From a virus (Duplodnaviria; Caudoviricetes): a DNA stretch of 63,296 bases. A program made the position numbers and the translations under genes. The notes below the pieces were generated by a model. It had not been told where the DNA came from. It saw only the letters and a list, made by a program, of their open reading frames with translations, and did no database searches. The stretch is from positions 1-63,296 of IMG/VR virus record IMGVR_UViG_3300044638_006148. The stretch is one strand, 5' to 3'. This document shows, piece by piece, positions 32,142 through 60,916 of this stretch (within the stretch, counting starts at the first letter, position 1; every line of letters begins with the position of its first letter).

Positions 32142-34292
32142 ATGGCATATCAAAATATTAATCAGTATAATTTTAGACGTTGGGGTATTAAACCTGTCAA
32201 TGAAATTACCGATATCTGTTTGGCTTCAGACGAGAAGGACTATGACCAAGAGGTAATTTTTTCACCACTATTAATAGGTGAGGTCGATGGTAATAGAATG
32301 CCATTTAAATTCGATTTCAATAGCACAGGGACAACGATATGCCAATCTGGTTCTTGTACTTTTGATAATGACGTTATAGTTTCTGAGAATTATTGGAACC
32401 CTGATGACATTGACCCTAACTTTTGTCCTAAAGTAACTGACCTTTGTGATGTTGGTTTAACAGGAATTGATAATGGTTTGGTTAAAAAAATGTCGGGGGA
32501 GACAATCCAAATAACGACAGGACTTTACACAAACAATTCTGACAAATATAGTAGATACAAGTACGATAGGAGAATGAAACTTCATCCTATCACAGGATTT
32601 ACTACCACACAAAATCGACTATGGAATGATGATTCTTATAGTTACAATTTAAATTATGCAACTGATGGTAATCCAGTAGGATATTTTGCAAGATTGAATG
32701 GAGGATTTTTCCAAGGATTTTATAAAATACCTGGTTACGATTATCAAGTTTTTCCTCAGAGAGTTCCCTTAGGATGGACTGCCGAATTTTTATTAAGATA
32801 CCGATGGACAGGAGACACAAGTGTTGGACTGAACAATCGATACCCTAATAATAAAGGTACGTTCTTTTATATGGGTTCGAGGGCGGAAAACAAATTCTAT
32901 CATTATGCCGATGGAGAACCTAAACAAGATAGTGGTTACACAAGAGTAACATCAGGATTAACTTGTATGCATACTTGTGGATGTGCGAGTTCGGCAAACA
33001 CAGCATCTACTTGTTTAGAAGTTTATCAAATATCTGGAGGGACTTCAACAAATTGTAATTGTGGTTGTCCTTGTAATTGTACTGTGACTGCTGAGTATCC
33101 TGAAAAAGACCCGTTATATGATGGGGTATCAAATGGACTTTCATTGAGGTTAAGTGGTGATAGTGGAAACCCTCGATTATGTATAAAAACCTACACAATT
33201 ACTGGTGGGTGTGAGACAAGTGGAACGTGTTTGACTGGATTAACTTATACCACAGGAACATCTGTTACAGAGTGGTGTTCAACACGAGGTATTTTTGATG
33301 ATTGTAAAAACACTCCTTATATCAATTTGGAACACTGGGTACAGATTGATGCTGTGTTCCAAAGAAATCAGTGGTTAGATACTTGTGACCTTTATGAGAA
33401 GGGAGGACTGGGTCTTCTTGTTGATACAATTTATACTGCAACACCAGCCAATAATAGTGTTAGTTTAATTGAACCTCCATTAACTCACGAGTTACCTTAT
33501 GATCCAGCAACAACTGAAATCGTAACATTCAACGATAATTGGACAGAAGGGAAAAAATATAGATTAGGTACTCTCAAAATATTCGTCAATGGTAAATTGT
33601 TTATGGTTGGTGAAAACTTTGAAGAGATTATACCAAGATTACTAAATGTTGAACGAGAAAAACAAATTGGAGTTGGATATAACATTTCTATAGGTGGAGG
33701 TACTCAAGGTCTTAAAGATAATCTTACGTTTTCGGGTGGATGTCCTGAATCAATAAGTGGAATCACTTATCAACAAGACCCTGAATGTTTAACTACTCAC
33801 GACTTAGATAATACAATATACTCAGGACTAACCACTCATATTAAGTTGGAAGAATATTTTGGAGGAAGTATGATTGGGGATGTCAGTGCGTTCAGAATGT
33901 ATGTTGAACCATTGAATGCGTCTCAGGTTAAACACAATTTTAAAATATTAAAAAACAGATATACTTTATTAAATCCAGAGTGTCCTGATTGTGCAATTAT
34001 TGTACCTGCGAATGATTTGACATATGAATTGATTCAAGCAACACCAACTCCAACACCAACAAACACTCAAACTCCTACATTAACACCAACTAATACAGTA
34101 ACTCCTACTCAAACTCTAACACCAACAAACACTCGAACTCCTACATTAACACCAACTAATACAATTACTCCGACACCAACAAATACACCAACATTGACAC
34201 AAACGCCAACTCCAACAGAATTAGTTTTCTTAGCTCAAGAAGATTATTTTACGATACAACAAGAAGACGGATTCAACATATTTGTAACATAA
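32142..34292 (+). CDS. Putative virion protein: LamG/concanavalin-like beta domain, Cys-rich insert, C-terminal (TP)n tract
   Basis: [46 protein letters not shown] repeats; ends FLAQEDYFTIQQEDG. Confidence 0.6.
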   Translation: MAYQNINQYNFRRWGIKPVNEITDICLASDEKDYDQEVIFSPLLIGEVDGNRMPFKFDFNSTGTTICQSGSCTFDNDVIVSENYWNPDDIDPNFCPKVTDLCDVGLTGIDNGLVKKMSGETIQITTGLYTNNSDKYSRYKYDRRMKLHPITGFTTTQNRLWNDDSYSYNLNYATDGNPVGYFARLNGGFFQGFYKIPGYDYQVFPQRVPLGWTAEFLLRYRWTGDTSVGLNNRYPNNKGTFFYMGSRAENKFYHYADGEPKQDSGYTRVTSGLTCMHTCGCASSANTASTCLEVYQISGGTSTNCNCGCPCNCTVTAEYPEKDPLYDGVSNGLSLRLSGDSGNPRLCIKTYTITGGCETSGTCLTGLTYTTGTSVTEWCSTRGIFDDCKNTPYINLEHWVQIDAVFQRNQWLDTCDLYEKGGLGLLVDTIYTATPANNSVSLIEPPLTHELPYDPATTEIVTFNDNWTEGKKYRLGTLKIFVNGKLFMVGENFEEIIPRLLNVEREKQIGVGYNISIGGGTQGLKDNLTFSGGCPESISGITYQQDPECLTTHDLDNTIYSGLTTHIKLEEYFGGSMIGDVSAFRMYVEPLNASQVKHNFKILKNRYTLLNPECPDCAIIVPANDLTYELIQATPTPTPTNTQTPTLTPTNTVTPTQTLTPTNTRTPTLTPTNTITPTPTNTPTLTQTPTPTELVFLAQEDYFTIQQEDGFNIFVT

Positions 34293-34322
34293 AAACAACA
34301 ATATTTATAAAATAAAAACAAA

Positions 34323-58376: not shown

Positions 58377-59247
58377 ATTTATAACCGCAATTTATAATGA
58401 TTTATATGGTACTGAGTTCGGTGGAAGAATTGGACGAGCAGGTCATTATAGACGAAGTTTATTATCTTTATTAAAGATGACAGACGCAGACTTTCTGTGT
58501 TATACCTCACAGAGAGAGTTAGAATCTTTAGAACAATATTATTACGAAGAATGTTCCATCTCGAGAGAAAAACTCAAATTCCAAGTGTTTGATATTGCAG
58601 ATACAAAGTTTAGAGATATTATCAATCAACATAAAAATCTTGAAGTAACCAAACAAAGTGATAGATGTGTTGAAATTCAATTCAGCAAATTTCATTGGTG
58701 GTGGAATGAAGACAAGTCGTATGACTACTACTATTGGATAGACGCAGGTTTATCTCATTGCGGTTTATTTGCACAGAAATATTTGGGTACAAGTGATTAT
58801 TATGCTCAAAATTATGAATGTAGTTTATTTAATAATTTATTTTTACAGAACTTAATAGATAAGACTGGTGATAAATTTTTGTTAGTCGGTAAAGACAATG
58901 TTAGACATTTTTGGGCCGGTACCGTACACCCTAGATGGTATACTGAGTTTGATGCAAGCATTCACGTGATTGGAGGTATTTTTGGTGGACGTAGAGATTT
59001 GTGGGATAATGTTGTAACCTTGTTTGAAAACTATCTCGAGAATATTATTGTGACTGATAAAAGTATTCCACATGAAGAAAACGTAATGTCATTAATGTAT
59101 TTCAACAACAAAGAGTTATTTGAATTAATCAAATTCGACCATTGGTGGTGTAGAGATAACGCACCAAGAGAAATCCCCGATAACTTTTTTGATAACTATA
59201 TAAGCTTTAATAAAATATTTGAAGAATTAAACGGAATTTATGAGTAA
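58366..59247 (+). CDS. HtrL/YibB-family GT-A-like protein
   Basis: FITAIY, SKF, YWIDAG, GGIFGG, EENVMS. Confidence 0.65.
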   Translation: MSVKFITAIYNDLYGTEFGGRIGRAGHYRRSLLSLLKMTDADFLCYTSQRELESLEQYYYEECSISREKLKFQVFDIADTKFRDIINQHKNLEVTKQSDRCVEIQFSKFHWWWNEDKSYDYYYWIDAGLSHCGLFAQKYLGTSDYYAQNYECSLFNNLFLQNLIDKTGDKFLLVGKDNVRHFWAGTVHPRWYTEFDASIHVIGGIFGGRRDLWDNVVTLFENYLENIIVTDKSIPHEENVMSLMYFNNKELFELIKFDHWWCRDNAPREIPDNFFDNYISFNKIFEELNGIYE

Positions 59248-60916
59248 TATAACATTAGTAACAGGAATTTGGGATATCGGTAGAGATGAACTTAAGGAAG
59301 GTTGGAGCCGACCGTTTCAACATTATTTGGATAAATTTGAACAACTATTAAAAGTTGAAGAAAACTTAATAATATTCGGTGACGAAGAATTAAGATCTTT
59401 CGTAGAAACAAGAAGAAACCCTGAAAACACACAATTTATCACCCGACCACTAAGTTGGTTTACCAACTCAGAATTTTTTCCATTAATTCAAAAAATTAGA
59501 ACGAATCCAGAATGGTATAATCAGTCGGGTTGGTTAAAAGAATCCACACAGGGTCGTTTGGAAAACTATAATCCATTGGTCATGTCAAAAATGTTTTTGT
59601 TACATGATGCCAAAATTATGGGTAGATTTGATTCCGAATATATATTTTGGATTGATGGAGGATTAACAAATACCGTTCATCCAGGTTATTTCACCCACGA
59701 TAAAGTATTGGATAAATTAACAAAATATGTTTCAAAGTTTTCATTTATATCATTTCCTTACGATGCAGAAAAAGAAATTCATGGGTTTGAATATTCTAAG
59801 TTAAATTCAATCGCAGGAGATAAAGTTAATAAAGTTGCAAGAGGAGGGTTCTTCGGTGGACCCAAACACACAATTAGTGATGTAAATGGAATTTATTATG
59901 GACTGTTAAAAAGTACATTAGAAGAAGGATACATGGGTACTGAAGAATCTATATTCAGTATTATGTGCTACAAACATTCTGACCTATTCAATTATTTTGA
60001 AATCGAATCCAATGGATTAGTTGGTAAATTTTTCGAAGACTTGAAGAATGATACCCTGAAGGCTAAAAATGAAAGTTCTGTTCAAGTTGTTAATAATTTG
60101 GATACAAACAAAGTAGGTCTCTACGTAATCACGTTCAATAGTCCAAAACAATTTAAGACTTTAATTGATTCTATGTTGGCGTATGATAAAGATTATATTA
60201 ACAAGACAACTAAGTTTTTGTTAGATAATTCAAGCGACTTGTCAACTACCGCGGAATACTCGGAGATTTGTAAAGAATTTGGATTCGAACACATTAAAAA
60301 AGATAATTTGGGAATATGCGGGGGTAGACAATGGATTGCAGAACACTTCCAAAATGAAACAGATTTGGATTATCATTTGCTATTTGAAGATGATATGTTT
60401 TTTTATCCAAACGAAGGTAAAGTTTGTAGGAATGGATTCAATCGGTACGTTCCAAACTTATATAGTAAGTCGTTAGAAATTATTAAAAAAGAAAACTTTG
60501 ATTTTTTGAAGTTAAACTTCACAGAATTTTACGGTGATAATAGTGTGCAGTGGAGTTGGTACAACGTGCCACAACATGTTAGAACAGAATTTTGGCCAGA
60601 TAAACCTAGATTACCTGAAATTGGATTAGACCCTAATGCACCTAAAACACAATTTAACTCAGTGTTATCTCATAAGGGAGTTCCTTACGCTAAAGGTGAA
60701 ATTTACTACTGTAATTGGCCTCAGATTGTTAGTAGAATTGGAAACCAAAAGATGTTTTTAGATACAACATGGGCACATATTTTTGAACAAACCTGGATGA
60801 GCCACATGTATCAATTGGTAAAAAAAGGAGAATTGTACCCTGGATTGTTATTACTAACACCTACAGAGCATAACCGTTTTGACCACTATTCTCGTGATTT
60901 AAGAAAAGAGAACTAA
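59240..60916 (+). CDS. HtrL/YibB-family domain fused to a GT2-like domain
   Basis: TLVTGIWDIGR, MSKM, FWIDGG, GGFFGG, TEE; then VITFN, LLDNSSD, NLGICGGR, FEDD. Confidence 0.7.
   Translation: MSNITLVTGIWDIGRDELKEGWSRPFQHYLDKFEQLLKVEENLIIFGDEELRSFVETRRNPENTQFITRPLSWFTNSEFFPLIQKIRTNPEWYNQSGWLKESTQGRLENYNPLVMSKMFLLHDAKIMGRFDSEYIFWIDGGLTNTVHPGYFTHDKVLDKLTKYVSKFSFISFPYDAEKEIHGFEYSKLNSIAGDKVNKVARGGFFGGPKHTISDVNGIYYGLLKSTLEEGYMGTEESIFSIMCYKHSDLFNYFEIESNGLVGKFFEDLKNDTLKAKNESSVQVVNNLDTNKVGLYVITFNSPKQFKTLIDSMLAYDKDYINKTTKFLLDNSSDLSTTAEYSEICKEFGFEHIKKDNLGICGGRQWIAEHFQNETDLDYHLLFEDDMFFYPNEGKVCRNGFNRYVPNLYSKSLEIIKKENFDFLKLNFTEFYGDNSVQWSWYNVPQHVRTEFWPDKPRLPEIGLDPNAPKTQFNSVLSHKGVPYAKGEIYYCNWPQIVSRIGNQKMFLDTTWAHIFEQTWMSHMYQLVKKGELYPGLLLLTPTEHNRFDHYSRDLRKEN

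Follow-up and report, generated by a model that had tools for sequence, protein, structure and literature searches.

A GT60-type glycosyltransferase operon beside Thr-Pro-repeat genes in a tailed-phage genome fragment: a candidate module for protein O-glycosylation

We analyzed a 63,296-nucleotide stretch of tailed-phage DNA (Duplodnaviria; Caudoviricetes; IMG/VR record IMGVR_UViG_3300044638_006148), hereafter called the window, which is the entire record for its source genome. On the plus strand, ten consecutive open reading frames (ORFs; 32142-55339) carry low-complexity tracts that are either rich in Thr and Pro (TP tracts) or built of Gly-X-Y triplets, and they are followed by a five-gene glycosyltransferase (GT) operon (55435-60916) led by a GT60-type enzyme (Table 1). 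Because genes for TP-repeat and collagen-like fibre proteins adjoin enzymes that resemble the initiators of animal mucin glycosylation, a sugar coat on some of the phage's proteins, made by the phage itself, is probable. We favor, at a rough probability of 0.55 and from sequence comparison, the reading that the operon is a cytoplasmic module for mucin-type protein O-glycosylation. The G+C content of the window is 28-45%, and no tRNA genes were found in its 63,296 bases. IMG/VR viral contigs with close relatives of the window genes reach 326 kb, and one of them, of 321 kb, has direct terminal repeats. Most of the window has a collinear counterpart, at 77-95% DNA or protein identity, in a complete relative of 326,291 bp (G001), where genes for a large terminase and a primase are present. 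These comparisons identify the window as part of the ~320-kb genome of a jumbo tailed phage that has not been cultured.

The lead enzyme matches the Pfam family PF11397 with an E-value of 9.1e-67 (226.4 bits against a cut-off of 21) in two stretches that cover most of the 352-position model; we take PF11397 to correspond to CAZy family GT60. Across an alignment of 41 homologues (35-93% identity) residues D92-x-H94 and H229 do not vary, and H229 would bind the metal. The GT27 and GT60 families share a DxH motif in place of DxD, and also the way in which they O-glycosylate polypeptides on Ser/Thr (PMC7185993; papers are cited here by PubMed Central number, from their available extracts). The AlphaFold model of the enzyme has a predicted local distance difference test score (pLDDT) of 94.8 and a predicted template modelling score (pTM) of 0.90. 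When it was searched against the Protein Data Bank (PDB) with Foldseek, the matches listed through rank 37 were polypeptide N-acetylgalactosamine (GalNAc) transferases (E ~1e-9, template modelling (TM) score ~0.5); the first match of another kind was GlfT2 at rank 40, followed by chondroitin polymerase and TarS. The GT-A fold is thus closest to GT27, and phmmer found no PDB relative by sequence. Beyond the catalytic domain the model has an extra beta-rich C-terminal domain (residues ~325-413). A hydropathy scan found no membrane-like segment in any of the five proteins of the operon. For the lead enzyme, solubility, fold, motif and family are all consistent with a cytoplasmic initiator of O-glycans on polypeptides. 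Relatives are numerous: a protein search gave 7162 at E <= 0.001 among 7999 scored candidates (the 120 listed are all at least 73% identical), 239 were confirmed in IMG/VR, and BFVD holds PF11397-like models from other uncultured tailed phages, Megaviridae and Pandoravirus. Some homologues (P0122, P0123, P0125 and P0134) reach a giant size, 1600-2500 aa, and contain as many as four PF11397-like stretches.

The terminator-like hairpin is placed between the last tract ORF and the lead enzyme gene, and the five operon genes abut or overlap by 8-11 bases. The second product belongs to no Pfam or PHROG family. The third matches PF01755 at 47.2 bits against a cut-off of 24, its best stretch covering only model positions 64-124 of 199. 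The fourth has no Pfam match and joins the HtrL/YibB family solely by profile-profile comparison. The fifth, a two-domain enzyme, matches PF09612 over residues 3-252 (73.5 bits against a cut-off of 24.1); its C-terminal half has an invariant E383-D384-D385, and its model (pLDDT 91.6) is of a dual GT-A type. NCBIfam gave only sub-threshold YibB matches, the two-domain enzyme scoring 82.9 against an equivalog cut-off of 264.9, and therefore it is not YibB itself. Its top Foldseek rows are the two-domain glycosyltransferases LH3, LARGE1, K4CP and COLGALT1, at low TM-scores (0.22-0.30). We weighed a specific link between collagen and the GT25-type gene because human GLT25D1 galactosylates collagen via a GT25 domain (PMC12987934) and because LH3 and COLGALT1 are in these leading rows. 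The link was set aside in view of the low TM-scores and because collagen-type genes are not conserved beside the operon; the resemblance to LH3 and COLGALT1 may reflect only the tandem GT-A architecture. The original prediction, which was made from the window sequence by itself, had described a terminator followed by a five-gene operon and had labelled the products GT60-like, GT-B, GT25, HtrL/YibB and HtrL/YibB-GT2 fusion. The layout is borne out, and so are four of these labels by the family, profile and structure searches, that of GT25 through a partial match; the GT-B label stays a language-model lead.

Table 1. Positions of the tract-bearing genes, the operon and the upstream glycan genes in the window
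Feature	Position	Strand	Match or remark
GT2 glycosyltransferase	9923-10729	-	
GDP-mannose 4,6-dehydratase (GMD)	13811-14791	-	
GT47-like lead	14793-15608	-	
DegT aminotransferase	16405-17565	-	
NAD epimerase/reductase	17562-18485	-	
GT11 glycosyltransferase	18482-19264	-	
GT10 glycosyltransferase	19269-20069	-	
UDP-galactopyranose mutase (Glf)	20062-21168	-	
Methyltransferase	21161-21847	-	
Two GT2 glycosyltransferases	22722-24123	-	
UDP-glucose/GDP-mannose dehydrogenase	24120-25277	-	
GT2_5+GT4 fusion	25277-26902	-	
GT-B glycosyltransferase	28214-29434	-	
716-aa protein, C-terminal TP tract (aa 626-699), candidate acceptor, first of conserved TP block	32142-34292	+	
432-aa collagen-like protein, Gly-X-Y mostly GTS/GSS	34323-35621	+	PF01391 3.3e-20; PHROG tail-fibre, best 3e-17
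187-aa protein, TP tract (aa 62-103)	35623-36186	+	
344-aa protein, TP tract (aa 61-156)	36217-37251	+	
1782-aa fibre protein, five Gly-X-Y blocks (561 residues), strain-specific	37282-42630	+	phrog_5073 tail-fibre 1.4e-62
732-aa fibre protein: N-terminal fibre domain, Gly-X-Y tract, C-terminal intramolecular chaperone	42742-44940	+	PF01391 2.7e-11; PF13884 Peptidase_S74 2.5e-10; PHROG tail-fibre
1299-aa fibre/spike protein, Gly-X-Y tract then long 'NTAVG'-type repeats	45025-48924	+	phrog_23837 virion structural protein 9e-170; phrog_4636 tail spike 5e-157
1243-aa paralogue of 45025-48924	48981-52712	+	N-terminus, Gly-X-Y tract and C-terminus in common (sequence)
462-aa protein, 67-aa N-domain ('MACSKY...') and two TP tracts (259 residues), candidate acceptor	52801-54189	+	
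379-aa paralogue of 52801-54189: same N-domain, 228-residue TP tract, C-terminal 95-aa domain	54200-55339	+	
Terminator-like hairpin, 11-bp stem, 7-base loop, T run	55380-55408	+	consensus match only
420-aa PF11397 (GT60-type) glycosyltransferase, proposed initiating enzyme	55435-56697	+	
317-aa protein, possibly GT-B-like, variable operon member	56699-57652	+	language-model lead Glyco_trans_1_2/GT90
244-aa GT25-type glycosyltransferase	57642-58376	+	PF01755 3.1e-12, partial
293-aa single-domain HtrL/YibB-like protein	58366-59247	+	hhalign 99.3%, E 7e-21 against HtrL domain of 59240-60916
558-aa two-domain enzyme, HtrL/YibB domain and GT-A domain	59240-60916	+	PF09612 2.7e-20

The tract-bearing genes were defined by a script that screened every window ORF of 80 aa or longer, in which a TP-rich tract has at least 60% T+P in 30 aa and a Gly-X-Y run has at least 8 triplets. 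The ten consecutive plus-strand ORFs are the only tract ORFs found. TP tracts of 42-259 residues are present in five (starting at 32142, 35623, 36217, 52801 and 54200; genes are named below by their start) and Gly-X-Y runs of 48-561 residues in the other five (34323, 37282, 42742, 45025 and 48981), and the tract DNA consists of imperfect in-frame tandem repeats with periods of 18-117 bases. All ten ORFs of the original prediction were thus recovered, its '(GTS)n' tracts being collagen-type Gly-X-Y repeats (PF01391). Its assignment of the tract genes to the virion has family support for the collagen-type genes, to which the tail-fibre, tail-spike and virion-structural PHROG matches and Peptidase_S74 belong, and not for the TP genes. 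The only PHROG matches of the latter are to phrog_15511 and, for the C-terminal domain of the 54200 protein, to phrog_677 ('baseplate wedge tail fiber protein connector', 1e-11); the 54200 gene is directly upstream of the operon. A cupredoxin identity for this 95-aa domain was not supported (best E 0.29, to unrelated proteins). Three TP proteins begin with a domain of ~67 aa with two Cys (52801-53001, 54200-54400 and 35623-35820), to which no family was assigned. It ends in 'FPP' exactly at the start of the TP tract, and the domain is conserved in 36 aligned relatives. The 716-aa protein has no Pfam family, no PDB relative by sequence search and only a language-model lead to ConA-like/Laminin_G_3 domains. 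Two minus-strand ORFs with 'PLVPDVPEVP' repeats (37683-38549 and 38799-39446) are mirror frames of the Gly-X-Y repeats in the 1782-aa fibre gene and almost certainly not genes.

The tie between operon and TP genes was examined in a close set of 80 of the 239 confirmed IMG/VR relatives, whose lead enzyme (the query, and so present in 80/80) is at least 84% identical to that of the window. Homologues of the two-domain enzyme were found in 79/80 loci, of the HtrL-like protein in 75/80, of the GT25-type enzyme in 71/80 and of the 317-aa protein in 3/80. Upstream, homologues of the TP genes 52801 and 54200 were found in 71/80 and 66/80 loci, of 36217 in 44/80, and of 32142 and 35623 in 39/80 each. 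A plus-strand TP ORF is upstream of the enzyme in 63/63 close loci that have at least 1.5 kb of upstream sequence, ending within 400 nt of the enzyme gene in 61/63; downstream TP ORFs occur in only 2/80. The TP tracts of these loci range from 36 to 979 residues; they are therefore kept while their length changes freely. A Gly-X-Y ORF was present in only 12 of the same 63 loci. The collagen-like gene 34323 has homologues in 9/80 close loci, and the four large collagen-type genes (37282, 42742, 45025 and 48981) in 0/80 within 10 kb and none in G001. The collagen-type fibres are thus not conserved partners of the operon; this half of the original prediction is weak because the genes are strain-specific insertions. 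The four genes, of collagen-type/beta-helix fibres, interrupt an otherwise conserved TP block (37282-52712), which suggests a strain-specific set of host-recognition fibres.

We then considered a divergent set of 72 viral loci, with an enzyme 38-78% identical to that of the window, where the two-domain partner has homologues in 58/72 loci and the 317-aa protein in 11/72; over the close, divergent and bacterial sets the partner was counted up to a distance of 8-10 kb. TP or Ser-Pro (SP) ORFs with at least 60 tract residues were counted blind, near (within 1.5 kb of the transferase block) and far (more than 3 kb away). Per 10 kb there were 1.99 such ORFs near and 0.58 far in the divergent set, and 3.63 near and 0.68 far in the close set. 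G001 has ten tract ORFs among its 411 ORFs. Four of these adjoin the GT60 operon; four further TP-tract ORFs (295388-303238 of G001) are divergent from a second glycosyltransferase cassette (region to 308823) that encodes a GT9, a 1210-aa methyltransferase-GT1-GT9 fusion and an FkbM methyltransferase. One TP ORF lies 4 kb from the large terminase, and one of the tract ORFs is a 1706-aa collagen-type giant. Among phage-collection records the lead enzyme occurs only in the jumbo phage XacN1 (Xanthomonas citri), in Xoo-sp13 (Xanthomonas) and in CM1 and RAS14 (Stenotrophomonas), at 44-48% identity. In XacN1 and Xoo-sp13 (46-48%) it is followed by a carbamoyltransferase, an HtrL-like homologue, one more ORF and a gene whose product matches the two-domain partner along its full length at 41-42% identity. 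Convergent to this operon are baseplate genes, the gene of a protein of 3313 aa with short TP tracts at its C-terminus, and a GT9 gene. For XacN1, virion glycoproteins, two or more in number, were reported by authors who suggest that phage transferases make them (PMC5852040).

The association extends to bacterial chromosomes. At least 560 relatives of the lead enzyme were found in one-per-species genomes of Bacteroidota, Gemmatimonadota, Acidobacteriota, Verrucomicrobiota, Pseudomonadota and others, and the best 80 of these at least 560 loci (L173-L252) were taken as the bacterial set. The two-domain partner lies within 8 kb in 32/80 loci, often directly adjacent. It accompanies the long form of the enzyme, with the C-terminal beta-domain, in 30/58 loci and the short form, which is mostly of Burkholderiaceae, in 2/22. 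The blind count gave 0.93 TP/SP ORFs per 10 kb near and 0.26 far (~3.6-fold), with a near TP ORF in 22/80 loci and a far one in 10/80. After clustering of the enzymes at 60% identity, 16/36 clusters have a near TP ORF and 9/36 a far one, the far zone having ~2x the bases; 12 of the 36 are majority-near and 3 majority-far. Beside the bacterial enzyme pair, in five or more clades (Rhodobiaceae/Tepidamorphus, two alphaproteobacterial bins, a deltaproteobacterial bin, Vicinamibacterales, Luminiphilus and Acidimicrobiaceae; loci L200, L201, L202, L206, L208, L239, L244 and L247), there are small ORFs in which a twin-arginine-like N-terminal signal precedes long TP/SP repeats. Their conserved leaders read 'RRKLLQ...LP..W.KP.IE.VV.PAHAQ' or 'SRRQFV...', a motif that by its consensus is presumably a twin-arginine translocation (Tat) signal. 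These neighbors look like genuine proteins, and as many of them have such signals, they could, in the tentative wider scheme given below, be modified before they leave the cell. The TP protein of L202 is also adjoined by a TMEM260-like protein O-mannosyltransferase (PF11028, 2e-29). In four Gemmatimonadota loci (L184, L186, L187 and L188; Gemmatimonadaceae or Gemmatimonas) a PqqD-like domain (PF05402, 1.5e-7, for L187 7230-7955) is fused to a TP tract, and the fusion gene is directly upstream of the GT60-type and HtrL/GT-A genes, a layout that resembles a peptide-modification cluster. L187 also has an NTP_transf_5 gene further upstream.

Several of these results, together with general knowledge of such tracts, weigh against the O-glycosylation reading, the evidence for which is entirely comparative. 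The 80 close loci are one lineage, and 63/63 therefore shows shared synteny and not independent events. In 26/72 divergent loci no TP or Gly-X-Y ORF was found within 8 kb of the enzyme. A 234-kb relative (70% complete) has its TP tracts at least 70 kb away, two partial genomes (54% and 39% complete) have no strict TP tract, and a fourth divergent relative has one TP site with two overlapping pattern matches; the strict DNA pattern for TPTPTPT used here is too narrow for counting tracts and served only to locate them. Adjacency is thus not universal, being absent or distant in part of the divergent relatives, and the co-occurrence of GT60 and TP genes, a check named by the original prediction, holds in all close loci with at least 1.5 kb of upstream sequence and as a near-versus-far enrichment beyond them. 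Only the 22 bacterial loci counted above have a near TP ORF; ORF calling is noisy in high-GC DNA, with the same noise in the far-zone control. Two of the ten G001 tract ORFs are near no identified glycosyltransferase. No virion-part family was found for the TP proteins in Pfam or PHROG, and phrog_15511 is of unknown function, aligned inside the repeat. The collagen-type fibres, being strain-specific, cannot be a conserved acceptor. Finally, TP tracts are common as plain linkers that require no sugar, and such linkers are widespread without dedicated enzymes.

These points allow an explanation that we consider distinctly unlikely, in which the two gene sets merely share a fast-evolving host-interaction region, the TP tracts are plain linkers, and the transferases have some other target: a different protein of the phage (capsid or tail tube, as in mycobacteriophages), one of the host, or a glycan that is free or secreted. 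Complete adjacency is confined to one lineage and is lost in the divergent loci just named, and the region is a site of strain-specific insertions, all of which speaks for such co-location. Against it, the near-versus-far enrichment recurs in chromosomes of several bacterial phyla, to which an argument from variable phage regions does not extend, and the second TP cluster of G001 abuts a different glycosyltransferase cassette. A recurrent TP neighborhood that includes several bacterial phyla is expected of an enzyme-substrate pair, and its bacterial part would not result from a variable-region effect.

Pfam and PHROG scans also detected a second block of glycan genes on the minus strand (9923-29434), outside the region covered by the original prediction. 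It has seven firm and one tentative glycosyltransferase genes, which brings the whole window to 11 firm and 2 tentative transferase genes, and PhoH, a dUTPase (dUTPase/dCTP-deaminase-like) and an exonuclease are interspersed among them. The last two genes would suit a role of the transferases in hypermodification of phage DNA bases against restriction, and phage glycosyltransferases are classically DNA-modifying (PMC12619734). We regard DNA glycosylation as highly improbable: none of the families given by PHROG and Pfam (GT60, GT25, HtrL, GT2, GT10, GT11) is a known DNA glucosyltransferase type, a hydroxymethylase was not seen among the scanned window ORFs, and thirteen transferase-type genes with several nucleotide-sugar pathways exceed the needs of base modification. 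The core of the block (13400-24400), with GMD, DegT, the epimerase, GT11, GT10, Glf, the methyltransferase, two GT2 and the dehydrogenase, lacks a collinear counterpart in G001, to which the DNA on either side is 78-91% identical. The sugar genes therefore vary between strains, and this core resembles an O-antigen locus in seeming to be a glycan island that is strain-variable.

This likeness bears on remodelling of the host envelope, which the original prediction had not weighed and which we judge unlikely, if the most serious of the competing explanations. Here the operon and island would rebuild the lipopolysaccharide (LPS), O-antigen or capsule of the infected cell, blocking superinfection or altering recognition, with soluble transferases acting on lipid-linked intermediates of the host and the TP and fibre neighbors unrelated. 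LPS/O-antigen loci usually contain GT25, HtrL/YibB, GT10, GT11, GMD, DegT and Glf, a further point against O-glycosylation of phage proteins, and the GT2 and sugar dehydrogenase genes are as typical. In the available extract of PMC4172580, HtrL/YibB is described only from LPS/lipooligosaccharide-type loci, and large cyanophages with at least 13 glycosyltransferases have been read in this way by their authors (PMC12801897). The island differs between relatives, as O-antigen loci do. On the other side, the family and nearest folds of the lead enzyme act on polypeptides and not on lipids, the enrichment of TP ORFs beside the bacterial enzyme pair is left unexplained, and virion glycoproteins are reported for XacN1. 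In the hydropathy scan 0/45 window genes have two or more membrane-like segments, so that the window, which is part of a ~320-kb genome, encodes no flippase, polymerase, ligase or initiating polyprenyl-phosphate transferase, a negative that covers the window only and concerns genes that the host could supply. O-antigen transferases are likewise soluble, and the absence of membrane proteins is compatible with envelope remodelling.

In the mucin-type O-glycosylation that we favor, the soluble GT60-type enzyme would put the first sugar on Thr or Ser of the TP-repeat tracts, probably an N-acetylhexosamine taken from a uridine diphosphate (UDP) sugar, by analogy with the family. Its foremost targets would be the products of 52801-54189 and 54200-55339, and also their relatives at 32142, 35623 and 36217. 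The HtrL/GT-A enzyme, the HtrL-like protein, the GT25-type enzyme and the variable fifth protein might then extend the glycan. The island at 9.9-29.4 kb would supply unusual nucleotide sugars, by guanosine diphosphate (GDP)-6-deoxyhexose, amino-sugar, UDP-galactofuranose and uronic acid routes, together with capping transferases, and through its variability strains could come to have different glycans. Most likely the proteins so modified would be exposed virion parts or fibre-associated proteins, and the collagen-type fibres, tied to the operon by position in one strain, may by analogy be further acceptors. The original proposal that the phage primes and extends O-glycans on its own mucin-like fibres thus keeps the support of enzyme family, fold and TP association; it loses the collagen-type fibres as conserved partners, and the TP proteins lack a virion family.

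A wider extension of this scheme is tentative, and we hold it more doubtful than probable. A prokaryote-wide cytoplasmic mucin-type pathway would join a soluble GT60-type initiator, with its own C-terminal domain, and a two-domain HtrL/GT-A extender on TP-repeat proteins, acting before export in bacteria and before assembly in jumbo phages, and would be the bacterial counterpart, possibly the ancestor, of mucin initiation by protist GT60 and animal GT27 enzymes. The abundant freshwater lineage would have acquired the pathway and coupled it to the strain-variable island, whereby each strain would have a different glycocalyx on its TP-repeat proteins.

The host is a matter of a lead only, to Bacteroidota, drawn from the labels of bacterial bins and from one protein of G001. 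The best bacterial-bin matches are short low-GC contigs labelled Saprospiraceae. In G001 (33125-35260) a 711-aa protein with SprB repeats (PF13573, 1e-17) adjoins the collagen-type giant; the same protein has a weak match to a type IX secretion sorting domain. Bacteroidota hosts are predicted for the 'moraphage' lineage of jumbo phages from aquatic sources, whose genomes reach 307 kb and have four groups of core glycosyltransferases (PMC12619734), and which may or may not include the window. Past the operon, an HNH/endonuclease VII-like gene on the minus strand (60913-61527; phrog_1035, 4e-18) converges on the operon end, and a family B DNA polymerase fragment begins at 62218.

Experiments have shown only a few phages to glycosylate proteins of their own, a modification that matters for the encounter of phages with host receptors, proteases, grazers and antibodies. 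The freshwater jumbo-phage lineage with the lead enzyme is common and abundant. If the favored reading is true, mucin-like glycoproteins would be regular in large aquatic phages, their glycan code would be strain-variable, and prokaryotic GT60 enzymes, of which we know no characterized example, would gain a testable substrate class. The bacterial triplet of GT60 enzyme, HtrL/GT-A enzyme and signal-bearing TP-repeat protein side by side is testable in cultured strains. Virion glycosylation of mycobacteriophages and the fibre glycans of giant viruses are already known, and a similar role was suggested for XacN1. The literature searched contained no account of a GT60-type enzyme in phages or of PF11397 in such a role, and apparently undescribed there are the pairing of a GT60-type initiator with an HtrL/GT-A enzyme, the tie to TP proteins in phages and bacteria, and the coupling to a strain-variable island.

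Compared at the level of family profile and motif, the protist GT60 enzymes (Dictyostelium Gnt2 and Trypanosoma cruzi OGNT-2) have PF11397 and DxH in common with the phage enzyme. Acceptors of these enzymes are rich in Thr and Pro, as is KPPTTTTTTTTKPP, on which the Mn2+-dependent enzyme of T. cruzi was assayed (PMC3769586). DdGnt2 is a membrane-bound Golgi enzyme (PMC3769586), whereas the phage enzyme has no membrane anchor, an extra C-terminal beta-domain and an HtrL/GT-A partner that is not known from protists. The GT27 polypeptide GalNAc-transferases of animals and Toxoplasma are its nearest solved folds, with DxH and a C-terminal His metal site in common; they are only 8-17% identical in structural alignments, lumenal, and equipped with a ricin-type lectin domain. 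A transferase gene beside a collagen-like surface-protein gene, as in the window, is known from SgtA/BclA3 of Clostridioides difficile and from BclA of Bacillus. SgtA, encoded beside the collagen-like BclA3, adds N-acetylglucosamine (GlcNAc) to Thr in Gly-X-Thr repeats; it differs in being an O-GlcNAc transferase of another family with a beta linkage (PMC7157674), and the collagen-type genes of the phage are not conserved beside its operon.

In giant viruses (Mimivirus fibrils and chloroviruses), nucleotide-sugar, transferase and methyltransferase genes are clustered with fibre components in a clade-variable manner (PMC9614988). These are eukaryotic viruses with other enzyme families, although PF11397-like models exist, as said, in Megaviridae and Pandoravirus. 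The 'LPS'/cell-wall clusters of the cyanomyoviruses P-SSM2, S-SCSM1 and S-SCSM2R resemble the upstream island in their GT2, GT10, GT11 and GT25 genes and epimerases, and thirteen transferases were called a possible record for a marine phage (PMC12801897). They are read as modifying the host surface or phage DNA, and the available extract of that paper reports no GT60-type enzyme or TP neighbors. XacN1 and Xoo-sp13 are like the window in the enzyme homologue, the HtrL-like gene and the two-domain partner, and differ in having a carbamoyltransferase, no GT25-type gene and short TP tracts; in the extract of PMC5852040 the XacN1 authors draw no link of the enzyme to GT60 or to TP tracts.

Mycobacteriophages offer a parallel to what is proposed here, in that structural proteins of the phage are presumably O-glycosylated by transferases that it encodes itself; virion glycosylation in them was reported by Freeman et al. 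in 2023. The glycans sit on the C-termini of capsid and tail-tube subunits, as related in a citing paper (PMC12619734), whereas in the window the candidate acceptors are long TP-repeat proteins and the lead enzyme is of the GT60 type.

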